This document shows positions 4,717 to 24,000 of a stretch of DNA of 24,000 nucleotides, one piece after another (the stretch's first letter is position 1; the number at the start of each line of letters is the position of its first letter). The notes under the pieces were generated by a model. That model searched no databases. It saw nothing but the letters and a program-made list of their open reading frames with translations, and was not told the origin of the DNA. Source of the stretch: Corynebacterium lowii (GTDB lineage Bacteria; Actinomycetota; Actinomycetes; Mycobacteriales; Mycobacteriaceae); contig NZ_LKEV01000004.1 of NCBI RefSeq assembly GCF_001412085.1, positions 193,217-217,216 of the forward strand, written 5' to 3'. Position numbers and translations under genes: made by a program.

Positions 4717-6198
4717 TTAGCGACGCCGCGCGCCCCGGCGTCGCAACTGTTGCCGGGCCTGCTGAGCCTGTTGGAGCGTGGCCCGGCCTGCGACCTTGAA
4801 CCCGCGATAGGGGTTGAAGCGTTGCGGACGGCGCACGCGCCGCGCGATCCATTCACCAAACACCACGCCCGCTGCCAGACCACAGGAGATAGCCAGCGCC
4901 GTGGCGATATTGGTGAAGCCCACCAGCATTTGCTCATTCAAGGCGGCGTACATACCGCGATATACCGCCAGGCCAGGCAGCATGGGCGTAATACCGGCAA
5001 TCGCGATAATCAGCGGCGGCACCTGGAAACGGCGTGCCAGAAGGCCACCGGCAAAGCCGATAATCACGGCGGCCATCGAGCCGGCCATCACCGTGGAAAC
5101 GCCCATCGGCACGAAAAGGAAGTAATAGAACACCGAACCCGTCATGGCGGTAATGCCGGAAAGCAATACCGCCGACCACTCCGCATAACAGGCAATGGCA
5201 AACCCCACGGAGGCCGCCGTACCCGCGAGAACCCTCACCCCCGGCGAGGCCGGATTAGGGGCAGCCACCGATTCCATCGGTGGCAAAGAAATACCCACGT
5301 AGGAGGATAATTGCAGGCCAATAGCCACGCCCGCCACGATGGCGCCAGTGAAAAGGAGGGTTTCAAAGAAGTGCGCGCTGGCCGTCACCGGGGCGCCGGT
5401 AATGCCGTCTTGGAGAGATTGCACGAGCGTTAAACCGGCCAGCATCACGATAATTCCCGAGGCCACAATCTGGCTGGGCCGCAATTCCACCCCAAACTCC
5501 GCCGCTGCGGCGTAGGAAAGAGCCGCGGGAATAGTGGCCATAACGCCGCCAATGACGTTTTGGAAAAACACCGGTAGGTGGTGCTTGGTCAAAAAAAGGC
5601 TCATCGACATGATGACGATGGAGGTGATAAAGGAGATAACACCCACCAGCGGAGTACCGCCCAGCAGCATCGACACCGCGCCACCCATGAGGCCCCAACC
5701 AAAGATCGAGGTCGCCGGGCCATAAGCCGTGGGCTGGGCCTCGATTTCATCGAGAATCCGCTCCGCGACGTCGGGAGGCGTAGCACCCGCCTGAATGGAA
5801 CGGATCAGCCGGTCCACCGCCGAGAGCTTGGAAAAGTCCGTGGTCAGCGTGCGCACCACGCGAAACACCGTCACCGGAGACTTCCTGGTGGTGCCGATGT
5901 GCGTGGAAACGGTGATGTTATTCATCGTGATGTCCACGTGGCACCACCACAGGCCATAAGCCGAGGTCACCGCGTGCATCTGCGCCTTGGTATCGCTATT
6001 CGACGTCCCGGAGGACAACAAAATATCCCCAATGCGGGCGGCAAGGTCCATCACGCCCGCCACCTGGTTATAGTCCGTGAGATCCACGGGGGCCAGGGGG
6101 GAGGGCGGGGGAGCGGCCTTGGCGGTATCAATCGTGGCTGCGTGCGGGGACTGATTGCGCCAGTTGCTCAGACGTTCGCGGATATTTGGCACGCTCAC
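4717..6198 (-). CDS. thrE: Threonine/serine exporter ThrE family membrane protein
   Basis: GTG start at 6198. The N-terminal stretch AKAAPPPSPLAPVDLTDYNQVAGVMDLAARIGDILLSSGTSNSDTK and the ~10-TM body match my recollection of C. glutamicum ThrE. Synteny with otsA agrees. Confidence 0.85.
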   Translation of the reverse strand: MSVPNIRERLSNWRNQSPHAATIDTAKAAPPPSPLAPVDLTDYNQVAGVMDLAARIGDILLSSGTSNSDTKAQMHAVTSAYGLWWCHVDITMNNITVSTHIGTTRKSPVTVFRVVRTLTTDFSKLSAVDRLIRSIQAGATPPDVAERILDEIEAQPTAYGPATSIFGWGLMGGAVSMLLGGTPLVGVISFITSIVIMSMSLFLTKHHLPVFFQNVIGGVMATIPAALSYAAAAEFGVELRPSQIVASGIIVMLAGLTLVQSLQDGITGAPVTASAHFFETLLFTGAIVAGVAIGLQLSSYVGISLPPMESVAAPNPASPGVRVLAGTAASVGFAIACYAEWSAVLLSGITAMTGSVFYYFLFVPMGVSTVMAGSMAAVIIGFAGGLLARRFQVPPLIIAIAGITPMLPGLAVYRGMYAALNEQMLVGFTNIATALAISCGLAAGVVFGEWIARRVRRPQRFNPYRGFKVAGRATLQQAQQARQQLRRRGARRR

Positions 6199-6422
6199 AC
6201 AACCTTTCTGGGCTCACGGGTGGTTCATGGGTGCTAGGTGCTTGCAGAGCGTGGTGGTGAGACCAGTGCGCAAGCGACGGTGGAAGAAACTTTAGCGGGG
6301 CACCGGGGCGGCTGCATAGGGGCAGGTGAGATGGGTAAAAGGGGTGTGGGTAGAGAGGTGGACTCGGCTATCCTGTACCATCTTCCACAACGCTGTTGCC
6401 GAGAGTGCTCGGCGGTGTTGTT

Positions 6423-6498
6423 GCTGGAGTGGCGCAATTGGTAGCGCAACGGTCTTGTAAACCGTAGGTTGCGAGTTCAAGTCTCGTCTCCAGCTCCA
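6423..6498 (+). tRNA. tRNA-Thr (anticodon UGU), CCA encoded
   Basis: Hand-folded cloverleaf. Acceptor GCTGGAG pairs with CTCCAGC, D stem GCGC/GCGC, anticodon stem ACGGT/ACCGT with loop CTTGTAA (TGT). T stem is GCGAG/CTCGT with loop TTCAAGT, then discriminator T and CCA. Confidence 0.9.
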
Positions 6499-6530
6499 AG
6501 GGGGAAGCCAGGGGAGCTGAGGGGGAAATT

Positions 6531-7427
6531 ATGCCTGGTAGTAGAAAAACATTGGGGGAGAACGTTGTAGTTGAAGAGCCGACATGGCTTAGGTGGATTG
6601 CGTCATGTCCACAGGCACTTCCTCCACTGCTGATGAGTTTGGCGGCTATTCCGGGTGCCTTTATTCGTGAAACTGATGGGCACCTTGATTGGTGGTGGCT
6701 GGCGCTAACGGGGCTGATGATAATTACAGGTGGAACTCTCACGGCTATGAGAATGGGGCGTGAAGAGAAAGTGCAGAAGAAAATGGATGAGGAAACTCGA
6801 AGGCGCCTCATGGAAGAAGGGGAAACGTATGAGTTCTATCTAGAGCAAATAGGTGTTGCGATATATCTACTGGTTAATGGTCTCATGGCGACCACTCCAT
6901 CATCTTTGAAGGTGCAGATGGAGATTGTACGTAAGTCTATTCTTGGCTTGATTCGGAGTTATCTTGGCCCGGAGACGGTAGGGGTGCGAGCCAACCTCTT
7001 TATCGTCGATCGCGTGGACCCTCCGCGCCTTGTGGCCTGGGGATGGGGCCATGAAGGTGGTAGTGGAACCCCGTCGCGGAGAGTATTTGAGCCGGGGGAT
7101 AAGACCTTTGACTTAGCCCTTCGGAAGTATGAACGATATGAACCCGATACCGCCCACTTGCCGATGGCGGAGCGCTCTCATCGGGGATATGGTTCGTTCG
7201 CTACATATCCAGTTTCAAGTAATGATAAATTGTTTGGAATCGTGACGATAGACGCGCCGCGCGCTAATGATATTCAACCATTAGACGTGGTTCTTCTGGG
7301 ATACTATGCGGGAATGTTGGCAATTACTTTTTCTGTTGTGAAAGATACACCTGCAATAGATCGCAGGTTGGGGTGTATGATGTGGGGCACTGGTCGTGAC
7401 GCAGAGGAGGGCAACGGCAATGCGTAA
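6531..7427 (+). CDS. Membrane protein with C-terminal GAF-like domain
   Basis: ATG follows a GAGGGGG SD, 33 nt after the tRNA. Hydrophobic segments are WWWLALTGLMIITGGTLTAM and IGVAIYLLVNGLMA. The C-terminal pattern VRANLFIVD ... GYGSFATYPVSSNDKLFGIVTIDAP ... LLGYYAGMLAITFS resembles GAF. GC is lower than in the flanks. Confidence 0.6.
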   Translation: MPGSRKTLGENVVVEEPTWLRWIASCPQALPPLLMSLAAIPGAFIRETDGHLDWWWLALTGLMIITGGTLTAMRMGREEKVQKKMDEETRRRLMEEGETYEFYLEQIGVAIYLLVNGLMATTPSSLKVQMEIVRKSILGLIRSYLGPETVGVRANLFIVDRVDPPRLVAWGWGHEGGSGTPSRRVFEPGDKTFDLALRKYERYEPDTAHLPMAERSHRGYGSFATYPVSSNDKLFGIVTIDAPRANDIQPLDVVLLGYYAGMLAITFSVVKDTPAIDRRLGCMMWGTGRDAEEGNGNA

Positions 7428-7581
7428 ACGCTATAGGGGAACGGACGCGCTGTACACGGAGAAGGTGCTTCTGCTTCAGGCAGACCCGGAACGATACTTC
7501 AGGGAAAATCCCAAACCGCAGTCAGGGTCTAGGGGTGCCCATTGGTTCTACAAGGAGGAAAGCTCCGAGGTGAGCCGATAG
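7420..7581 (+). CDS. Small basic hypothetical protein (53 aa)
   Basis: The ATG at 7420 overlaps the upstream stop (ATGcgTAA) and is preceded by GAGGAGGG. The stop lies in the loop of the hairpin at 7569-7596. No homology is recognised. Confidence 0.35.
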   Translation: MRKRYRGTDALYTEKVLLLQADPERYFRENPKPQSGSRGAHWFYKEESSEVSR

Positions 7582-7596
7582 TCCCGGTGGCTCACC
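7569..7596. terminator. Hairpin between convergent genes (possible bidirectional terminator)
   Basis: GGTGAGCC (7569-7576) and GGCTCACC (7589-7596) are a perfect 8-bp inverted repeat with a 12-nt loop. No U-tract follows on either strand. Confidence 0.4.
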
Positions 7597-7599
7597 CCG

Positions 7600-8481
7600 C
7601 TAAGTCGCCTTCACTACCCACTCATACAGCCCCTCCCACAGGTCCTTGCTCTTGCTCCTAAAGAAGCCCATGTGCCCAATCTCCTTGGCTCCAATAGAAG
7701 CCGGGCTAATATCCCGCTTTTCCACGCTGGCTCCGGTGAGGCGACGCAGCAGAACGTCGGAGGCCTCCCTGGTGGCCCAGGGGTCGTCGTTCAGCACAAT
7801 AGAGAGCACGGGCGCGGTGACCTTGGCAAAGCGCTGGGGGAGCGGGGTGCCTTGGTCGGGGAAGTTCGGATCGTCGAAGAAGTATTGGGGCATGCGCGTC
7901 CAGTGTCGCCATTGGAGCATGATGCCGGCGGGTACGGGCTTGCCCATGCCGATCTTGTCCACGGGAACGTAACCCAAGAAGCGGGCCGTGAGCGGGGTAA
8001 AGACGTTGAATACGAACCCCACTTTGAGTCGTTCTGGGAGGGGCGGAATGAGCCGCGTAATTCCGGCGTGGCTGGCCACGAGTGCGATGGCGTCTACGGG
8101 CTCGTCCTGGAAGGAAACGAGCTGGCCGTGTCCGCCCACGGAGTGTCCAATGGCGACGATTTTGCGGTCGGGGTAGCGTGAGCGCAGGAAACGGTTGGCG
8201 GCGGGGACGTCGCAAAGCATCCAGTCGCTCATGCCGATGTTTTTATCTTTGTAGTCGCTGGGCAGGGCGGATTCGTTGGTGCCGCGATAGTCGTAGGTGA
8301 GCACGGGGATTCCGTGGTCAGCGAGGTATTGTGCGCAGGCGGCGTAGAGGCCCTTGTGGACGCCGGTGGCGGGGTGAATGACTACGGCGGGCAGTGTAGT
8401 GTCCTCGTGTTCGGGGAGGAAGAGTTGGGCACTGAGTTCGCGGTTGTCTGAGGTTGGGATGGAAGCGCGCATGGCCTGCAT
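7600..8481 (-). CDS. Alpha/beta-fold hydrolase
   Basis: Nucleophile elbow GHSVGG is present, with an overall alpha/beta hydrolase pattern (VVIHPATGV ... YDYRG). The start is uncertain: ATG at 8481 or 8472 is preferred over the GTG at 8526. Confidence 0.75.
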   Translation of the reverse strand: MQAMRASIPTSDNRELSAQLFLPEHEDTTLPAVVIHPATGVHKGLYAACAQYLADHGIPVLTYDYRGTNESALPSDYKDKNIGMSDWMLCDVPAANRFLRSRYPDRKIVAIGHSVGGHGQLVSFQDEPVDAIALVASHAGITRLIPPLPERLKVGFVFNVFTPLTARFLGYVPVDKIGMGKPVPAGIMLQWRHWTRMPQYFFDDPNFPDQGTPLPQRFAKVTAPVLSIVLNDDPWATREASDVLLRRLTGASVEKRDISPASIGAKEIGHMGFFRSKSKDLWEGLYEWVVKAT

Positions 8482-8540
8482 GTTATCAGAATCACTAAAT
8501 ATGGGAGAGAGTTTCGCCCAGCACACTGGGGATGTACTAG

Positions 8541-11165
<2,625 letters not shown>

Positions 11166-11173
<8 letters not shown>

Positions 11174-13784
11174 CGCTGCCTCCTGTCGCGGCGGGAAGGG
11201 AAAGGATCATGGTGGCTCCGCCACCGGGGGTATCGTCCACGCGAATGTCCCCGTGCATGGCCTCGGCAAAACCGCGCACCACGGCTAGGCCGAGCCCCAA
11301 CCCCGTGCCGGTATCGTTGCGGTGCACGAAGGGGGTAAAGAGGGTTTCGCGCTGATCCTCGGGGATACCGGGGCCGTGGTCAATCACCTGAATCTCCACG
11401 GTATCTTCCACGGCCACGGCGCGCATCAGCACCGGGGCTTCGCCGTGCAGCAGGGCATTGCGCAGCAGGTTCGCCAGGGCGCGTTGCAGCAAACCGGAGT
11501 CGCCCAGCAAGGCGGGAAGTCCCTCGCTCACCTCCACCCGGATGTGCTCGCGCAGTTCGGGTTGCTCCGCGAGCACGGCCTCGATGATCTCGGCGGCGCG
11601 CAGGCGGCGCTGGTGTACGGCGATGGTCCCGGAGTTGAGCCTGCTCATATCCAGCAGATTGCCGATTACGGTTTCTAACCTATCGGCGGATTCCTCAATG
11701 CTTTCGATCAGTGCGGCGTGCGCCTCGGGGGGCAGGGGGACGTCGCCAAGCATGAGCCCGGAGACCGCGGCCTTGATACTAGCCAGCGGGGTGCGCAGAT
11801 CGTGGGAGACGGCGGCGAGCAGGGCCGAACCCACCCGATTGCTGGTTTCTAGGGCGGCCGCGGCGCGGCGCACGGCGTCGATCTCCTGGCGGTCCAGGAT
11901 GGCGGTAATCCGTGCGCCGCGAGCCTCGATCATGGTGCGCTGCTCGGGGCGAATCTCCGGGCCCGCCATGCTCAGGCGCAGGCGCGGCCCCAATTCCACC
12001 CGCTCCCCGGCCTCCGGGTCCCACTTATCGACGAGCCCGCGCGGCGAGGTGGATTCCAAGGTCACCCATTGGTGGCTTTCCGGCGCCCAGCGCTGCAAAT
12101 CCACGCGGTGCAGGGAGAAGGTCTGCTGGATACGCCGGAGTAGGGAGGGGAGATCGTCGCCCTCGTGAATCGCCCCGCGCGCGAGGTCGGCCAGCACAAT
12201 TGCCTGGGCCTGGCGCTGTTGCGCCTGGTGGGTACGCTGTGCTGCCACGTCCACGATCCAGGCCACGCACACCGCCACGATGAAAAAGAAGAGAATACTG
12301 ATGAGCGATTCCGGCTCGGTGATGGTGAGGGTGTGCTCCGGGGTGGTGAGGAACCAATTGACCAGCAAGGAACCGGAAAGCACCGCGAGGATCGCGGGAC
12401 GCAAGCCCCCGGCTAGGGCGGCAAAGACCACGATGGTCAAGTACCCCAGCAGCACGGCCCCCACATAATCCGGGCTGGGGTGAAAGGCGGTGAGCGCGAG
12501 CGTTACCAGCGGGGGCGCAACCGCGGCCACGCCCCAGCCCACCGCCTTGCGCCCGGTGCTTAGGTAATTGCGGCGGGCTTGGGCGGGGGCTTCCGACGCC
12601 ACCCCGGCACCCGTTCCCTCAGCCGCCACGATGTGCACGTCCACGTGCCCGGCCTGGTTGATGATTTGCTTGCTCAGCTGCGTGGCCCCGAGGCGGTGGC
12701 GCCGCGTGCTGGCCCCCAAACCAATGACGATCTGGGAGGCATTGAGCGTGCGGGCAAAACCCAGCAGGGTATCGGCCACCTCATCGCCGGCGATCACCCG
12801 CCACTGGCCGCCTAGATCCTCGGTGAGTTTTTGCAGGCTGCGCAGGGAATCGGGGGGTCGTCGGGAAAAGCCATCATCCCGTGCCACGTGGACTACCACC
12901 AGCTCGCGGTCGGCCACCCGTCCGGCGATCCGCGCGCCGCGGCGAATGAGCACGTCCGAGCCGGGGGAACCGGAAACCCCCACCACCACGCGCTCGCGGG
13001 TGGGCCAGGAGGCGTGAATATCGCGTTCGGTGCGGTACTGCGCCATGCCCTCTTCCACCTTGTCCGCCAACCACAGCAGGGCGAGTTCCCGCAGCGCGGT
13101 GAGGTTACCCAGGCGGAAATAATGATCGAGGGCGCGCTGGGCGGTATCGCCCTGGTAGATCAGCCCGCGCGCCAGGCGCACGCGCAGGGTATCGGGGGAG
13201 AGGTCCACTAGCTCGATCTGGTCGGCCTCGCGCAGCACCCTATCCGGCAGGGTCTCGCGCTGGCGCACCCCTGTGATGGCAAAAACGACGTCGTTAAGCG
13301 ATTCCACGTGCTGAATATTCAGCGTGCTCAGCACGTTAATCCCGGCGTCGAGAAGCCGGTGCACATCCTGCCAGCGCTTAGCGTCGGGGGCCTGGGCGGA
13401 GCCGAGCACCGTGTGGGCGAGCTCATCTACCAGCACGGTATCCGGGTGGGCGGCGAGCACGGCTTCCACGTCGAGTTCTCCGTACATGGAACCGTGTTCG
13501 TAGTGGCGGGGCAGCACCTCTAGGCCCTCCACCAGGGCGGCGGTGCGGGGGCGGCCATGATCCTCCACCACGCCCACGAGCACGCTGCGCCCCTGGGCCA
13601 CTAACTCGTGGGCCTCGTTGAGCATGGCGCAGGTTTTCCCCACGCCGGGGGCAAAACCCAGGTAAATCTTCAAGCGCCCGCGCCGGGGCTGGCCTGTCGG
13701 AGCGTTGTGTGCCTCTACCAACCGTTGTTCCACCAAGAATCTCCTACTACCCGGAATGTCGCGCGGCTTCCGCCACGGCGGCAT
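11166..13784 (-). CDS. kdpD: Sensor histidine kinase KdpD
   Basis: N-terminal KdpD domain with P-loop GFAPGVGKTCAM, a Usp-like region, a 4-TM block, H-box SHDLRTPL and an HATPase (GTGLGLGLAVV). Start alternatives are ATG 13784 (38-nt overlap with kdpC), TTG 13736 or GTG 13733. Confidence 0.9.
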
Positions 13785-19872: not shown

Positions 19873-20817
19873 GTGATAAAGCAGATAGCACGCTTCAGTA
19901 TCGGGGTTGTGGGAGTCATGTCTGTGTCTGGTGTGTCGATGGCTCAGGCGGCACCAGTGGTGGATGCGGTGCCGTGGCCGGCTGCTCCCTTTGGTGGGGA
20001 GAAGCCCCTGGAGAATCGGTATGTGGAAAAGACCACCGAGGATGGTTGGGTGCTCCACGCAGAGAAGAAAGATGAGACGATCAATGTGGCACCGCCCTTG
20101 GATTCGGCGGTTACCACGGGGGAGAGCTTTGGCAGCTTGAAGGCCAAGGTGTGGATCACCGGCCAGGGAGAACCAGAACTGCGTGGTGCTGTCTTTGAGG
20201 CTGGCTATCAGGTGGGTTGCGGGGTGGACATCTCTACTGGTGTGGATTATGAGGTGGCCGGAACAGTAGGTGTTGCTCCGCGGGTCAGCGGTGGAGTGGA
20301 AGGCGGCCCGAGCGTTTCCGGTGGAGTTGAGGGTGGTCCGAGTGTCTCTGGTGGGCTAGAGGGTGGTCCGAATGTGGGTGTTGGTGGTGAGGCTGGTCCG
20401 AGTGTTTCGGTGAGTCTGCCGGAGGGCAATGTGCAGGTAGGGGCAGACGGAAAAGTTAAGGGGGAGGCCGGGGCCGATGCCACGGGCAAGGTAGAAGGTG
20501 GTGCTGACGCGACCGGCAAGCTAGAAGCCGGAGCGGACGCTACCGGCAAGGTTGAGGGCGGGGTTGATGGTAAGGCCGAGATCGCTCCGGCGATTAAGGG
20601 GCATCTGGATCCTGGCAAGATCACCAATGTTGCTCTGGTTTCCATGCCTATTGATAAGGAATATAAGCGTGCTGCGGGTGGTTTCACCGGGGCTCATCTT
20701 CAGGTCAATGGGTGCGCGGGGCCGGTGACGGTGCGTTCTTACGTGACGATTTCTACCGTGAGCCCCACGTCTGTGGATGCTGTGAACGTATACGGCGATC
20801 CGCAGCGCATCCGATAG
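19873..20817 (+). CDS. MspA-family porin-like secreted protein with Gly-rich repeat insertion
   Basis: GTG start is 7 nt after GGAGG. The signal peptide ends in MAQA. Rim-domain similarity to M. smegmatis MspA as recalled: PLD...GAVFEAGYQVGCGVDISTGVDY vs GTLELGYQIGFPWSLGVGINF, PGKITNVALVSMPID vs PGIQEVATFSVDV, and GAHLQVNGCAGPVTVRSYVTI...VYGDPQRI vs NAHGTVTGAAGGVLLRPFARLI...TYGEPWNM. Confidence 0.75.
   Translation: MIKQIARFSIGVVGVMSVSGVSMAQAAPVVDAVPWPAAPFGGEKPLENRYVEKTTEDGWVLHAEKKDETINVAPPLDSAVTTGESFGSLKAKVWITGQGEPELRGAVFEAGYQVGCGVDISTGVDYEVAGTVGVAPRVSGGVEGGPSVSGGVEGGPSVSGGLEGGPNVGVGGEAGPSVSVSLPEGNVQVGADGKVKGEAGADATGKVEGGADATGKLEAGADATGKVEGGVDGKAEIAPAIKGHLDPGKITNVALVSMPIDKEYKRAAGGFTGAHLQVNGCAGPVTVRSYVTISTVSPTSVDAVNVYGDPQRIR
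20284..20403 (+). repeat. 4 x 30-bp in-frame tandem repeat (VSGGVEGGPS units)
   Basis: Units at 20284, 20314, 20344 and 20374 encode VSGGVEGGPS / VSGGVEGGPS / VSGGLEGGPN / VGVGGEAGPS. Confidence 0.85.
20449..20574 (+). repeat. ~4 x 30-bp in-frame tandem repeat (GKVEGGADAT units)
   Basis: Encodes GKVKGEAGADAT / GKVEGGADAT / GKLEAGADAT / GKVEGGVDGK. Confidence 0.8.
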
Positions 20818-20833
20818 GAAGGAAAGCACAATC

Positions 20834-21109
20834 ATGACACAGGCAGAACAGCAGGAGTATCCGGTGGAGGTCTCGAAGGCAACGGCGCAGGTACCGCGCA
20901 AGCAGCCGTTATGGATTCCCATTGCCAATTTGGTTATCGGCGTTGCGGTGGTACTAGGAGCGCTGACGTGGTCGCAGTATCTTGACGAGCCGATTGCACA
21001 GTATGGCTATGTGAAGGTGATGTTCTTTTACGTGGTGCTGATGATTATTGGCGGTGGTCTGATGGTGTCAGGGTTTACTACGTTGTGGGTTCGGGGAACG
21101 TCGCGATAA
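20834..21109 (+). CDS. Small 2-TM membrane protein (91 aa)
   Basis: ATG follows AGGAAGG. Two hydrophobic spans are LWIPIANLVIGVAVVLGALTW and VMFFYVVLMIIGGGLMVSGF. It is tightly packed between the MspA-like gene and the next ORF. Confidence 0.6.
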   Translation: MTQAEQQEYPVEVSKATAQVPRKQPLWIPIANLVIGVAVVLGALTWSQYLDEPIAQYGYVKVMFFYVVLMIIGGGLMVSGFTTLWVRGTSR

Positions 21110-21117
21110 AGGGAACC

Positions 21118-22632
21118 ATGATGAAGAACCAAAAGAGCAAGGTGTGGCGGCGCTATGGAGCGGCGATTGCTGCCGGTACAGTGATGGTGCTGGTGACGCC
21201 GCAGGCTGGGGCGGAAACCCCAGAAGAGCGGTGTGCCAGGGAAACCGCTGCCCATAATGCCACGATGGAAGCATTATGGCGTGCTTCTCATCCTGGCCAA
21301 GAGCCAGGTCCTGGTGCGTGGCCTCCCTATGTGTGCGTTGGTGGGCCAGAGGGAAATAATGATACCGGAGGGCAGAATACGAATCCTGCTCCCCCTGCCG
21401 GAGGACAGCAGGGTGCTACTGGTGGTCCTACCGGTGGTGAAGAGGATTCTGCCCCTCTGTATGGGCGAGACCACCGATGGGATGAGGATACTACTGGTGG
21501 TCATGAACGTACCCATCAGTGGGACGATAGCGATGGGACTGGAACGCAACGTACTCACCAGTGGGATGATTCAGGGCGCACTCCTTCGCAGTATGAACAG
21601 GATATGCAGTTAGGCCCATTAGGGGACGCTCGCAGGAGTACTGGGCAAACTGGTGGCAGTGGGCAGGGGGATCGTCGATCTGCTGCTGATAGTGCGCGGT
21701 CGAATGTTCCTACGGTACCGGTATGGGAAGAACAGGTGCGTGGAAATGATGGACAGCAGCGTACGGTGCGCGTGGCTGATCTTGGCAACGGTGTGCAAGC
21801 GGTGGTTGATGATACTGGGCGCGGTACCGGTGAGGTGGTACGGGTAGACCCTGCCACGGGGGAGAAAAGTATCGAGATTCACGATGATCTCGCAGGTGAA
21901 AGCCTTGTTGTAGACCCTAGCGAAGAAAGAGAAGAGGCTGCGCCTGCAAGCGCTGCGCCGGGAGAGGCGGAGAGTACACAGACTTCCGCTATCCCGGAGG
22001 CACCAGTAGTACCGGTGGAGGGAGAAACCGGGGATACTCGTGGTGATGATGGGGGTGAGCCTGTGGGGCCGTTGGGTGCTGTGGGCGCTGCTATTGGTGG
22101 ATTAGGTGTCTTGGAACGCCGGCGACGTCGTGATCGTTCATGGCAGGGTGATATTGATTGGGGGGAGGGGCGTGAGCAATCGCTGATTGTGCTCGAAGGT
22201 CCGGAGTCTCCTCGGGAATATCGCTATGACCTTGATGTTCCTCCTGGTGGGCAGGTTGTAGAAAACCCGGATGGCTCGGTGGATGTCCTTGATGCGCAGG
22301 GTAACGTGACGAAACATGTCAAGGCCCCGTGGGCCTATGATGCCGCTGGGCGGGAAGTGCCTACTTATTTTGAGGTAGACCCGGAAACCGGTGAGTTGGT
22401 GCAGGTGGTGGATCCGGAGCGTACGACGGTGTTGCCGATTGTGGCGGACCCGGATAAACGCACTATGCCTGAGTATGAGAGCGATGATATGTCGCCGTCA
22501 AGGGCGGCGCAGGAGAAGGCTCGGCGAGAGAAAGAGAAACATAGTGCAACGAAGCCTGCGAGTGATAATCCTGCGAAAAATCCGGAGAATATGACGAAAA
22601 ATCCGGTGACGGGCAGCGTTCCTGGGAATTGA
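21118..22632 (+). CDS. Signal-peptide protein with acidic repeat region, internal hydrophobic/Arg5 segment and C-terminal globular domain
   Basis: The start is set at MMKNQKSKVWRRYGAAIAAGTVMVLVTPQAGAE (signal-peptide-like), 8 nt after the upstream stop. It has 3 x 14-aa R(T/D)H(Q/R)WD(D/E) repeats. The segment GPLGAVGAAIGGLGVLERRRRRDR is followed by a ~170-aa domain (APWAYDAAGREVPTYFEVDPETGELVQVVD). Confidence 0.7.
   Translation: MMKNQKSKVWRRYGAAIAAGTVMVLVTPQAGAETPEERCARETAAHNATMEALWRASHPGQEPGPGAWPPYVCVGGPEGNNDTGGQNTNPAPPAGGQQGATGGPTGGEEDSAPLYGRDHRWDEDTTGGHERTHQWDDSDGTGTQRTHQWDDSGRTPSQYEQDMQLGPLGDARRSTGQTGGSGQGDRRSAADSARSNVPTVPVWEEQVRGNDGQQRTVRVADLGNGVQAVVDDTGRGTGEVVRVDPATGEKSIEIHDDLAGESLVVDPSEEREEAAPASAAPGEAESTQTSAIPEAPVVPVEGETGDTRGDDGGEPVGPLGAVGAAIGGLGVLERRRRRDRSWQGDIDWGEGREQSLIVLEGPESPREYRYDLDVPPGGQVVENPDGSVDVLDAQGNVTKHVKAPWAYDAAGREVPTYFEVDPETGELVQVVDPERTTVLPIVADPDKRTMPEYESDDMSPSRAAQEKARREKEKHSATKPASDNPAKNPENMTKNPVTGSVPGN
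21466..21591 (+). repeat. 3 x 42-bp in-frame tandem repeat (RTHQWDDS... units)
   Basis: Encodes RDHRWDEDTTGGHE / RTHQWDDSDGTGTQ / RTHQWDDSGRTPSQ at 21466, 21508 and 21550. Confidence 0.8.
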
Positions 22633-23840
22633 ATGATGGGCGCATTGTGACGGAGCATCCGCGTGAGGATGATTCTGGACGTACGGATTGGACTTTGACG
22701 AATAAGGATGGAACAAAGCAGGAGTCGCTGTCGCAGGTTCAGTCGGATGTGGATGGAAGTCCCACGAATCTTAAAACTATTGATAATTCTGAGGTAGATT
22801 TACCGCAGCAGGATCGTCAGGATTGGGCGAATCGTACGGGAACTCGTGAGGGTTCTAATGTGGATAATCACCCGTTTAATAATGGTGATGCGACGTTTTC
22901 CGATCCGACGCAGGGGACAGTGGTACCAGGTTATTATAACCGGGAGTTGGATAAGCGTTCCTTTGCTGATGGTGAAGGTGGGTATGTCACTGAACATCCT
23001 AATGGGGATGGTACGTCGGATTGGACGCATAATAATACGGAGGGGCAGCAGGAGGCTGTGGCTTCGTTGGAATGGAAGGATGAGGGTGGCCTAGATAATG
23101 CCACGATGATTGATGATACGTTGGTTACTTCTCCGCCGGAGACAGGAGAGAACGATCAGACGTGGTACAACGGGACTGTTACTCAGGATCCGTATGATGG
23201 GATGTTCCAGGATGAGCAGGGGCGTTGGCACGATGGTGCTAAGAATCATGAAGGTGCAGATACACCAGCTTACCGCTTAGAAAATGGAAATATTCTGTAT
23301 GGGGTCAATGCGGAAGATGGTCATACCGATTGGGTGACGGAAAATAAAGACGAAAAAGTTTCTGCTGTTCGTGAACTAGAATGGGACGATAATGGTGACC
23401 CTGTAGTTAAGAGGCAGGATGGGTATATATCAAAGAAAGAATACGAATCGAAAAAAGGAGGACCTTTTTCCGAAACGGACATTGCTGGTGGTGTTTATAA
23501 TGTAGGAACTGGAGCTTCTTTTGGTGCTGCGGAAAAAAGTGCATACCTTGCTAAGGAAGCCGGAGAAAAGGTTGATGATTTAGCGAAGGCTGCTAAATAT
23601 GGTGGACGTGGAGCGAGTGGTTTTGGTGTAGCCGCTGGGGCAATGATGGATATTGAACAAGGAGGGATGGATCCTACTAAGGCTTGGACCACAAATGCAT
23701 TAGGTGGGGCGGCAGCTCTGGGTGTGGGGCTGTTTATTGGTCCTGGTGCTCCGGTAGCCGCAACAGTAGCAGCTACGTATGCAGCGGGACTGTTAGTAAC
23801 TAAGGTATCTCAGCAGTTTTGGAGGGATCCAGTTGAATAG
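22629..23840 (+). CDS. Three-module repeat protein with Gly/Ala-rich glycine-zipper-like hydrophobic C-terminus (candidate membrane-active toxin)
   Basis: No ATG is available. The start is TTG 22629 (TTGA overlap with the upstream stop) or GTG 22647. Three ~112-aa modules begin at G(R/G)(I/Y)VTEHP..D...DWT..N. The C-terminus is GASGFGVAAGAMM...ALGGAAALGVGLFIGPGAPVAATVAATYAAGLLV. No signal peptide is seen. Confidence 0.7.
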   Translation: MNDGRIVTEHPREDDSGRTDWTLTNKDGTKQESLSQVQSDVDGSPTNLKTIDNSEVDLPQQDRQDWANRTGTREGSNVDNHPFNNGDATFSDPTQGTVVPGYYNRELDKRSFADGEGGYVTEHPNGDGTSDWTHNNTEGQQEAVASLEWKDEGGLDNATMIDDTLVTSPPETGENDQTWYNGTVTQDPYDGMFQDEQGRWHDGAKNHEGADTPAYRLENGNILYGVNAEDGHTDWVTENKDEKVSAVRELEWDDNGDPVVKRQDGYISKKEYESKKGGPFSETDIAGGVYNVGTGASFGAAEKSAYLAKEAGEKVDDLAKAAKYGGRGASGFGVAAGAMMDIEQGGMDPTKAWTTNALGGAAALGVGLFIGPGAPVAATVAATYAAGLLVTKVSQQFWRDPVE

Positions 23841-24000
23841 TAAGTCTGCAATATTGAGAATCTTCTATTCCGCATATAGAGTTTTTATGTTCCTTGTTCT
23901 TTTTGTTCTTCCTATCTATGCGATTATCATTGGGTGGCATGAGGAAAATTATGTAATGGGACACTTAATTCCCATTGGGGTCATCCCTCTGGTGATTATT
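23833..24000 (+). CDS. AT-rich membrane ORF, 3'-truncated by window end (candidate immunity protein)
   Basis: The frame is open from TTG 23833 (GGAGG 7 nt upstream, overlapping the upstream TAG) to the window end. It encodes hydrophobic RVFMFLVLFVLPIYAIIIGW and LIPIGVIPLVII. By hand count of 23841-24000 the GC is ~36%, against >60% in the backbone. Confidence 0.45.
   Translation, partial: MNSKSAILRIFYSAYRVFMFLVLFVLPIYAIIIGWHEENYVMGHLIPIGVIPLVII

Follow-up and report, generated by a model that had tools for sequence, protein, structure and literature searches.

Within the 24,000-nt window of Corynebacterium lowii DNA analyzed here, the downstream end is occupied by a run of genes on the plus strand that begins with a member of the MspA family of mycomembrane channels (19873 to 20817), continues with a small gene for a 91-aa membrane protein (20834 to 21109) and two overlapping reading frames (21118 to 22632 and 22629 to 23840), and closes with a gene that starts at 23833 and is visible as far as the window end at 24000. 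The second of the overlapping frames, which runs from TTG 22629 to TAG 23840 and comprises 403 codons, had been singled out in an initial annotation as an independent gene for a protein of three modules with a toxin-type C terminus and no signal peptide. Promoter and terminator scans gave results at chance level, and no Rfam family was found.

The MspA-family gene, with GGAGG 6 nt ahead of its GTG start, is the first gene of a conserved module. Its product matches PF09203 with an E value of 6.8e-44 (150 bits against a cutoff of 22.9); because the NCBIfam MspA equivalog scored far too low (26.9 bits against a cutoff of 280), we regard it as a member of the family and not as an orthologue. Clear as its kinship with the MspA porin of Mycolicibacterium smegmatis is (PF09203; PMC10868439), the C. 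lowii protein differs in its central stem region, which is replaced by Gly-rich, hydrophilic 10-aa tandem repeats (30-nt tandem repeats at 20289 to 20550), and in being linked to a toxin gene instead of standing alone as a nutrient porin. The second conserved gene of the module encodes a protein with two hydrophobic segments that belongs to no family at curated cutoffs (17.9 bits against 33 for DUF6249 and 12.7 against 100 for an anti-sigma model); homologues of this two-transmembrane (2-TM) protein are encoded after the MspA gene and before the toxin gene at every locus, with tblastn E values from 1e-5 to 1e-44. The pair was found directly upstream of the toxin gene in all 10 of the loci with enough upstream DNA. 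This arrangement was not described in any of the literature that we searched, and a metagenome scan with the MspA-like protein returned nothing.

The 22629-to-23840 frame is open on the plus strand for 403 aa, as the initial annotation had it, and the other unusual features that it had pointed out were also seen: no in-frame ATG lies near the 5′ end, and TTG 22629 shares the tetranucleotide TTGA with the TGA of the upstream ORF, giving a 4-nt overlap. The GenBank annotation begins the product at GTG 22647 (397 aa), for which an exact-protein look-up gave no record. A properly spaced Shine-Dalgarno sequence is present at the neighboring genes and absent at both TTG 22629 and GTG 22647. The view that these features mark a stand-alone, TTG-started gene under translational coupling did not survive comparison with the orthologues, which are continuous through the junction (NPVTGQRSWEL); the boundary in C. 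lowii is a 1-nt deletion. The frameshift site is the GGG at 22611 to 22613, where orthologues have GGGG or the equivalent ACC GGG: C. heidelbergense reads AATCCGGTGACGGGGCAG and the window AATCCGGTGACGGGCAG, with one G missing from the G4 run. Frame A (21118 to 22632) ends in a premature TGA made by the frameshift, and frame B (22614 to 23840), of which the reported ORF lacks the first five codons, reads QRSWEL..., in agreement with NPVTG-QRSWEL of the orthologues. In both C. mastitidis and C. heidelbergense, the protein is a fusion spanning the junction, and ORFs uninterrupted from the signal peptide to the C-terminal tip are found in C. uberis (4736 to 7873) and C. oculi (8411 to 11299), with which frames A and B together align collinearly; in these and other relatives, the two C. 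lowii ORFs form one protein of ~900 aa. This comparison of sequences indicates that the reported ORF is probably the 3′ two-fifths of a single polymorphic-toxin gene of ~907 codons (21118 to 23840), split by the loss of one G at 22611 to 22613. The apparent non-ATG, overlapping start and the missing signal peptide then result from the splitting of one long gene by a 1-nt deletion, with the signal peptide located on the upstream half.

It is unlikely that the downstream frame is nevertheless an independent gene, whose leaderless product would arise by termination-reinitiation at the TTGA overlap and act as a stand-alone toxin. The overlap itself, the 403 open codons without a further lesion, and the retention of the split in two C. 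lowii strains would suit such a gene; however, neither a ribosome-binding site of its own nor orthologues starting at the same point were found, the TTG is a weak start without a properly spaced Shine-Dalgarno sequence, the orthologues are continuous where the 1-nt deletion produced the split, the product would lack a signal peptide and so could not exit the cell, and invariant residues have undergone changes that suggest decay. A sequencing or assembly error in an uninterrupted gene is highly improbable: although homopolymers are often miscounted in sequencing and the gene shows no other damage, a second C. lowii assembly from a different run (L008; SRR28260140), 99.94% identical to the window and 8 SNPs apart, has the identical G3 frameshift. 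Since this second, nonidentical assembly carries the same lesion, we consider the frameshift to be real and the gene to be probably a pseudogene. The toxin gene holds 3 of the 8 SNPs, all nonsynonymous; one replaces an otherwise invariant Trp by Ser in the window, and another an invariant Thr by Met in strain L008, which suggests decay or relaxed constraint.

Frameshifts were also observed elsewhere in the family, in C. mastitidis and C. oculi (L006), at different places. Together with the position of the C. lowii lesion in a homopolymer, they might be signs that a costly weapon is switched on and off, in which case the gene would be functional through slippage at the G run, whether ribosomal (−1) or transcriptional, or through phase variation in the length of that run. 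We think there is little chance of this, since G3 or G4 makes a rather short run for slip-strand switching, the two C. lowii sequences available both carry G3, neither an X XXY YYZ slippery heptamer nor an obvious stimulatory structure was seen in the sequence at the frameshift site, and the frameshifts of the other species lie at unrelated, non-homopolymer-specific positions. The C. lowii toxin is most likely dead, its gene a recent pseudogene. Because there is a single lesion and both halves are otherwise open, some residual function of the split gene is possible.

The upstream half appears to be a conserved trafficking region, which 26 Corynebacterium homologues have in common, with differing C termini. 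It begins with a Sec-type signal peptide (21118 to 21213; MMKNQKSKVWRRYGAAIAAGTVMVLVTPQAGA, followed by ETPEE) that has a basic n-region, a hydrophobic core, and a cleavage-like site (AGA-E), features that we read from the sequence and its hydropathy and not from a predictor; its position is conserved among the homologues. A Gly/Ala-rich hydrophobic segment followed by RRRRR (22069 to 22131; hydropathy of 1.31 over 19 aa) is kept in all family members, and AF2 confidence is low there. This segment could be either a stop-transfer-like anchor or have some other role; if the positive-inside rule is applied to it, the toxin half would stay cytoplasmic, which mismatches simple Sec/MspA export. A sortase signal was considered and rejected, as no LPXTG was read in the sequence ahead of the segment. 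There follows a beta-sandwich domain (22135 to 22467; REQSL..PWAYDAxGR..ADPD) that is the most conserved block of the family alignment and is modeled at a pLDDT of ~90 (residues 340 to 450). It had no PDB match with an E value of <0.02, and Foldseek searches of the upstream half against the PDB returned generic Ig-like sandwiches only; the same domain occurs directly after the signal peptide in an unrelated metagenome protein. Pfam and NCBIfam gave no match on the upstream half (21118 to 22632), and a PDB sequence search with the profile of the N-terminal region yielded nothing significant, with no solved structure matched. In intact relatives, the protein opens with the Sec signal peptide, after which come a helix with two Cys residues, disordered stretches and a small beta domain, the Gly-rich hydrophobic segment with its RRRR, the beta-sandwich ending in ADPD, a linker and the NPVTGQ motif, ~2.4 acidic beta-hairpin modules, and an Ala/Gly-rich helical C-terminal domain of ~125 aa.

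The acidic beta-hairpin modules (22647 to 23408) comprise two full units of ~111 aa, from 22647 and 22986, and a core-only third at 23310 to 23408. Modules 1 and 2 align over ~105 aa with a z score of 9.2 (200 shuffles), the other self-alignments gave z scores of 5.1 and 6.2, and the DNA itself repeats at a 333-nt spacing; each module core is predicted by AF2 to be a four-strand meander (pLDDT of 70 to 88). The repeats noticed in the initial annotation are therefore real, but the three modules of ~112 aa described there reduce to ~2.4, as only a core of ~35 to 45 aa is left of the third (z = 5 to 6). The initial annotation did not recognize the module family, and this still holds: no match to it came from Pfam, NCBIfam, or PHROGs, in which the whole ORF was searched, or from PDB sequences, and a profile of the module itself, searched against the protein database only, retrieved solely members of this Corynebacterium toxin family. 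The Foldseek comparison with the PDB that had been proposed as a check gave, for the model of the ORF, no more than a weak resemblance to Rhs and OspA sheets (E value of ~7e-4, TM score of ~0.1). Rhs/YD-repeat polymorphic toxins likewise place long beta-hairpin repeats ahead of a variable toxic tip, and the modules find their best structural matches, which are still weak, in Rhs shells (RhsA and Rhs core, TM scores of 0.09 to 0.14); the C. lowii protein differs from them in having no RHS/YD Pfam match, and ~2.4 units of ~111 aa are far too few for a shell.

The C-terminal toxin-type domain (23457 to 23837) contains amphipathic helices, the motif DIxxG(M)DPTxAxxxN (23646 to 23696), a Gly/Ala-zipper hydrophobic hairpin (23697 to 23798), and TKxxQxxW, as seen in an alignment of 13 tips. 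The Gly/Ala-rich end, GxxxG-like spacing, and terminal helix pair claimed for this region were largely recovered: Ala and Gly make up 22% and 17%, respectively, of the last ~113 aa, the hydrophobic helical hairpin spans aa 357 to 390 of the ORF with a small-xxx-small run at aa 357 to 386, and the AF2 model has five helices at low confidence (pLDDT of 35 to 55), with two predicted at aa 349 to 367 and 376 to 398; strict GxxxG, however, occurs only three times. None of the 13 aligned tips matched Pfam Gly-zipper_YMGG, Gly-zipper_Omp, or DUF1269 even at E values of ≤5, the Gly-zipper models being matched by a few distant WXG-linked relatives only, and a PDB sequence search with the tip profile gave nothing significant. 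Searched against 1.84e9 proteins, the profile of the domain retrieved 72 relatives, many with WxG/T7SS-type N termini; a WxG motif lies at aa 41 to 58 in ~28 of the 72, and Pfam matches among them include WXG100, WXG100_2, T7SS_signal, and EspA/EspE, with Gly-zipper in some, the WXG matches being mostly under gathering scores. Profile-profile alignment with the tips of actinobacterial WXG/T7SS-type proteins (hhalign, 99.1%, E = 7.8e-19) indicates that the domain is homologous to these tips, with the caveat that profile matches to Gly/Ala-rich regions are prone to inflation by composition. For a Rhodococcus homologue of the WxG type, the gene is likewise followed by genes for a 4-TM protein and a paralogue of that protein. 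A similar hairpin was also found in prophage tape-measure-like proteins, so that the hairpin may be a general membrane-insertion element.

On these sequence comparisons, the ORF belongs to an apparently undescribed Corynebacterium polymorphic-toxin family, which combines a conserved N-terminal region of ~450 aa with exchangeable C termini. At least five types of tip occur among the 26 homologues, including the glycine-zipper-like domain of C. lowii, a classic GxxxG zipper, and a TNT NADase. Identity to the closest relatives falls from ~90% to 27 to 60% from aa ~200 of the ORF onward. The PF14021 (TNT) match at the C. oculi locus lies on ORFs that continue the family gene past a frameshift and correspond to the uninterrupted protein P0023. 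Both a conserved N terminus with swappable C termini and tips that are recognized toxin domains, by which polymorphic toxins are identified (Zhang et al. 2012; PMC3482391), are found here; the third such feature, orphan tip and immunity cassettes downstream, is seen in relatives, the window itself ending at 24000. In C. uberis, four orphan tips were found, each forming a cassette with a polytopic membrane protein of its own; this species also has paralogous immunity-like families, and TNT orphan tips occur in C. oculi. A scan of genome contigs for the family locus gave matches in C. mastitidis and C. oculi only.

These observations bear on whether the Gly/Ala-rich hairpin might be a membrane anchor, a channel-lining element, or a general insertion module instead of a toxin, for which one could cite the related hairpins in prophage tail tape-measure-like proteins, the matches of some relatives to generic Gly-zipper and DUF1269 membrane-protein models, and the absence of an enzymatic motif. 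We consider this explanation unlikely, as the hairpin domain sits exactly where paralogous genes have the TNT NADase or another tip, occurs in C. uberis as orphan cassettes with a cognate membrane protein each, shows an abrupt break in identity typical of toxin-tip exchange, and is common to WXG-type proteins with the same downstream partner architecture. The toxin-type C terminus put forward in the initial annotation is accordingly supported by its cassette behavior at the variable end of the family; the membrane depolarization proposed with it is something we infer. The gene from 23833 is a candidate for the immunity gene that polymorphic toxin systems carry next to the tip, on its downstream side: its TTG overlaps the toxin stop, a strong Shine-Dalgarno sequence (GGAGGG) lies 5 to 6 nt upstream, and the 56 aa visible before the window end contain two hydrophobic segments. 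Its GC content of 0.36 contrasts with 0.635 in the flanking genome, and relatives have polytopic proteins of 200 to 260 aa at this position; across species and the Rhodococcus locus, the immunity candidates are alike in architecture and have no BLAST similarity. This gene may still be useful to C. lowii.

The arrangement can be compared with several known systems. In the T7SSb LXG glycine-zipper toxins TspA and EsxX of Staphylococcus aureus and TelE of Streptococcus gallolyticus, a short helical zipper C terminus is the toxic part, and an adjacent gene, frequently one of a paralogous array, encodes a polytopic membrane protein that confers immunity (PMC7456083, PMC12744356, PMC10434224). The C. 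lowii protein resembles these, by architecture and not by direct sequence comparison, in its C-terminal hydrophobic zipper helix and in a tip homologous to actinobacterial WXG-type tips, but it has no LXG or WXG100 domain (no Pfam/NCBIfam match on either half), its family has a Sec signal peptide and a link to an MspA-like channel, and its host is a mycolic-acid diderm and not a firmicute. As in the type Vb CdiB/CdiA/CdiI systems (PMC11630599), an outer-membrane channel gene adjoins a gene for a large signal-peptide exoprotein with an exchangeable tip, a candidate immunity gene follows directly, and orphan tip/immunity cassettes lie further downstream; by analogy with CDI ionophore toxins (PMC11630599), some tips may be membrane active. 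Here, however, the channel is of the MspA family and not Omp85/TpsB, there is an extra 2-TM gene, the hosts have a mycomembrane, and the family lacks a TPS domain, FHA repeats, and the VENN motif, with no meaningful Pfam match on the 10 members searched. CpnT/TNT of Mycobacterium tuberculosis is likewise a mycomembrane-associated toxin with a C-terminal toxic domain, and TNT (PF14021) forms the tip of some family members; CpnT export requires ESX systems and EsxEF pores (PMC8593097, PMC7810871), and CpnT, unlike the Corynebacterium family, has neither a Sec signal peptide nor an MspA partner. ABP/BetaH systems were rejected, as the BetaH domain and adjacent S8 protease that they require were not seen here.

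In the mechanism that we propose for intact members of the family, the MspA-like channel and the 2-TM protein would help the Sec-exported toxin to cross, or to sit in, the mycomembrane. The amphipathic helices would carry the Gly/Ala-zipper hairpin into the cytoplasmic membrane of a target cell, where the hairpin would oligomerize into a small pore or ion leak, and the polytopic membrane protein encoded from 23833 would neutralize the toxin in the producer. We tentatively speculate, while thinking it somewhat less probable than its opposite, that the MspA-like channel and the 2-TM protein are a dedicated route by which Sec-exported polymorphic toxins are carried across or displayed on the mycomembrane, amounting to a two-partner-like secretion or CDI system of mycolic-acid bacteria whose tips are exchanged with the ESX/T7SS pool.

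It has long been asked how proteins pass the outer membrane of mycolic-acid bacteria; to our knowledge, ESX systems and Esx pores are required in the examples known so far. Polymorphic toxins with a Sec signal that are invariably encoded behind an unusual MspA-type channel and a 2-TM gene offer a genetically tractable candidate for export or presentation in Corynebacterium, and members of this genus are prominent on skin as well as in the eye and the udder. In addition, the family gives a new trafficking context to a putative membrane-active tip that is otherwise found on WXG/T7SS-type proteins. In C. lowii itself, the odd, seemingly leaderless and TTG-started gene is best understood as a frameshifted fragment, probably of a decaying weapon whose candidate immunity gene remains.

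The open reading frame (ORF) at 22629-23840 on the plus strand (TTG to TAG, 403 aa) starts within a TTGA in which its TTG overlaps the TGA of the upstream 515-codon ORF and has no in-frame ATG nearby, as the initial annotation had read from the sequence; GenBank annotates a hypothetical protein of 397 aa from the GTG at 22647. By protein search, the source organism is Corynebacterium lowii. The initial annotation had taken this arrangement for a translationally coupled gene with a non-ATG start, a reading that comparison with its relatives does not support. Searches recovered just four relatives of the ORF. In C. mastitidis and C. heidelbergense, the related protein extends upstream into sequence matching the final part of the upstream ORF in the window, with a junction reading '...NPVTGQRSWELGDGRRVTEHP...', and in C. 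uberis (L002 4736-7873) and C. oculi (L010 8411-11299) a single uninterrupted ORF runs from signal peptide to C-terminal tip. When one base is re-read, the reconstructed window gene aligns collinearly with the C. uberis and C. oculi ORFs. The junction DNA is ACG GGG CAG in C. heidelbergense, ACC GGG CAG in C. uberis and C. mastitidis, and ACGGGCAG in the window, where one G of the run is missing (22611-22613). The same G3 is present in a second C. lowii assembly from a separate run (L008; SRR28260140) that is 99.94% identical to the window over 12.8 kb; since this independent assembly differs by 8 SNPs, the lesion is real and inherited. Three of the eight SNPs fall in the toxin gene and all three are nonsynonymous; the Trp of a 'VQWDxDG' motif, kept in every relative and in L008, is Ser in the window, and an invariant Thr is Met in the L008 strain. 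Neither the TTG at 22629 nor the GTG at 22647 has a Shine-Dalgarno sequence with proper spacing, while GGAGG-type sites are present at the MspA-like gene and at the downstream gene. The read-through relatives, the inherited G3 lesion, and the lack of a properly spaced Shine-Dalgarno sequence argue against an independent, translationally coupled gene. Together with the nonsynonymous SNPs, they lead us to regard the ORF as the 3' portion of one gene (21118-23840) that was inactivated recently; the window holds a frameshifted, probably decaying member of its family.

Frameshifts were also seen at other loci, at unrelated positions: within the N-terminal region of the toxin in C. mastitidis (L001 9193-12028), at the junction before a TNT tip in C. 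oculi (L006 8001-11158), and, at the second C. oculi locus, in the MspA-like gene itself (L010 7333-8321). These may reflect recurrent decay of a costly weapon or errors in draft assemblies.

A search with the upstream half (21118-22632) identified 26 Corynebacterium proteins of 488 to 872 aa that share a signal peptide, an 'ETPEERCxRET...WPPYVC' motif, a Gly-rich hydrophobic segment followed by RRRR, and a 'REQSL...PWAYDAxGR...ADPD' domain, and that diverge completely after this conserved region. Their C-termini carry the modules and tip type of the window, other repeats with the same tip family, Lys/Pro-rich linkers with a classic GxxxG zipper, at least two globular tips of unknown kind, or a TNT-type tip. 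The TNT type was recognized in C. oculi, where ORFs annotated as PF14021 (TNT) come after the family gene; the first of these is a frameshifted continuation of that gene and matches a continuous protein (P0023). Identity between the window ORF and its closest relatives is 80-95% in aa 1-200 but only 27-60% beyond that point. Abrupt breaks of this kind typify tip exchange. Behind the intact C. uberis gene come a polytopic membrane protein and then four orphan tip fragments, each succeeded by its own membrane protein; tips and partners fall into two matching classes. This array (L002 7866-14510) terminates at an ISL3 transposase fragment, and one of its orphans, P0004, retains the modules. Against 0.635 for the flanking genome, GC content drops to ~0.49 across the modules and tip and to 0.36 in an ORF from 23833; this last ORF, of which only the start lies within the window, overlaps the toxin stop, has a strong Shine-Dalgarno sequence, and encodes a hydrophobic product. 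The swappable C-termini, the identity break, the orphan pairs of tips and membrane proteins, and the low-GC downstream ORF are together characteristic of a polymorphic toxin-immunity locus (PMC3482391). The ORF is the tail of a member of an apparently undescribed, MspA-linked polymorphic-toxin family.

Over the whole window (1-24000), GC content falls stepwise from ~0.68 to 0.36. The toxin module occupies 19.8-24 kb, with a strongly positive GC skew, and lies next to a minus-strand kdpABC/kdpDE operon (about 10.5-18.3 kb), with thiC at 8670-10499. The toxin module is consistent with an acquired island.

The ORF had been described as opening with three homologous modules of ~112 aa. The repeats are real, modules 1 and 2 aligning over ~105 aa (z = 9.2 relative to shuffled sequences) and the DNA repeating at a spacing of 333 nt, but they amount to about 2.4 units, as the third copy consists only of a core of ~35-45 aa (z = 5-6). 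AF2 models of each module core gave a four-strand beta meander (pLDDT 70-88), for which the best Foldseek matches were Rhs shells and OspA single-layer sheets (E ~7e-4, TM ~0.1); there was no Pfam RHS match in the modules, and a module profile matched members of this toxin family only. The modules are optional in the family, some members having Lys/Pro-rich linkers instead, and in orphan cassettes the third module goes along with the tip. The modules may form an acidic extended spacer or a target-binding region, whose conserved stretches would double as recombination handles.

Ala (22%) and Gly (17%) are abundant in the last ~113 aa of the ORF, which include a small-xxx-small run and, at aa 357-390, a hydrophobic hairpin, in agreement with the Gly/Ala-rich C-terminal domain and hydrophobic helix pair of the initial annotation. 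The window tip had no match among Pfam glycine-zipper models, and AF2 predicted five helices at a pLDDT of only 35-55. A tip profile (A3) built from 13 sequences and searched against 1.84 billion representative proteins matched 72 proteins with E <= 1e-3, of which 17 reached E <= 1e-10. Many matches outside the toxin family are proteins of 320-520 aa with the tip domain at the C terminus, and ~28 of these carry a WxG motif at aa 41-58; among 50 matches scanned against Pfam, 8 fitted WXG100, 4 WXG100_2, 3 T7SS_signal, and 1 EspA/EspE, most below gathering scores, and a few A3 matches also fit Gly-zipper or DUF1269 models. Profile-profile comparison aligned the toxin-family tips with this WxG-type group over 103 columns (99.1% probability, E = 7.8e-19), the two groups having in common the motif DIxxG-x-(D/S)-xx-A-xx-(S/T)N-xxG and, after it, a hairpin that has a Pro at its centre. 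A WxG-type member in Rhodococcus is followed by an overlapping-start protein with four transmembrane (TM) segments and a soluble tail, and then by its paralogue; the architecture is that of the immunity candidates in Corynebacterium, although BLAST found no similarity. At this locus (Rhodococcus sp. HNM0569, L016 5711-9450), a 97-aa gene that may encode a helper or WXG partner precedes and overlaps the tip homologue, P0055, and an LpqN lipoprotein gene lies between the two 4-TM paralogues. Hairpins resembling the tip also occur inside prophage tape-measure-like proteins: a hairpin with E = 4.5e-9 to the tip profile lies within P0045 (L017 8001-9968) and its relatives P0047 and P0080, which match tape-measure and head-morphogenesis PHROGs and are flanked by a tail-tube gene and a Sipho_Gp37 gene. 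These prophage hairpins, the missing Pfam glycine-zipper match, and the low pLDDT are caveats on the tip assignment. We infer that the window tip is a depolarising or small-pore toxin, as first proposed, a reading well supported by genomic context and homology and paralleled by the characterised glycine-zipper toxins TspA, EsxX, and TelE (PMC7456083, PMC12744356, PMC10434224).

Upstream of the toxin gene lie an MspA-family gene (19873-20817, plus strand; PF09203, E = 6.8e-44) and, between the two, a plus-strand gene for a 91-aa protein with two TM segments (20834-21109). This three-gene order was found in all 10 loci with sufficient upstream sequence, including those of C. mastitidis, C. uberis, and C. 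glyciniphilum, both C. oculi loci, two tandem copies in a metagenome-assembled genome (MAG), and two other metagenome contigs. The tandem copies (L007 1-10442) are complete and lie ~4 kb apart on one contig; both toxins have a GxxxG-zipper tip, and IS elements adjoin the second copy. No account of an MspA-linked toxin system was found in the literature searched; ABP/BetaH systems are different, requiring a BetaH domain and an S8 protease.

AF2 modeling of the toxin's upstream half gave confident domains at residues 35-57, 200-260, and 340-450, with long disordered regions between them, and no informative match was found in the PDB. Midway along this signal-peptide protein, the conserved Gly-rich hydrophobic segment with RRRR(R) (22069-22131, plus strand) looks like a stop-transfer anchor, in which case the toxin half would remain in the cytoplasm. 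Yet the beta domain after this segment recurs in an unrelated metagenome protein of 319 aa (L014 444-1403), where it comes immediately after the signal peptide; this placement suggests that it is extracytoplasmic. Scoring 26.9 bits against a cutoff of 280 for the NCBIfam MspA equivalog, the MspA-like protein is not an orthologue of MspA. In place of the MspA stem it carries Gly-rich 10-aa tandem repeats, encoded at 20289-20550 by two sets of 30-nt repeats (GGVEGGPSVS, three to four copies, and GADATGK(V/L)E, three copies); because these are Gly-rich and hydrophilic, the stem of the channel may be much longer or different in kind. The interest of the family lies in a possible export route across the mycomembrane.
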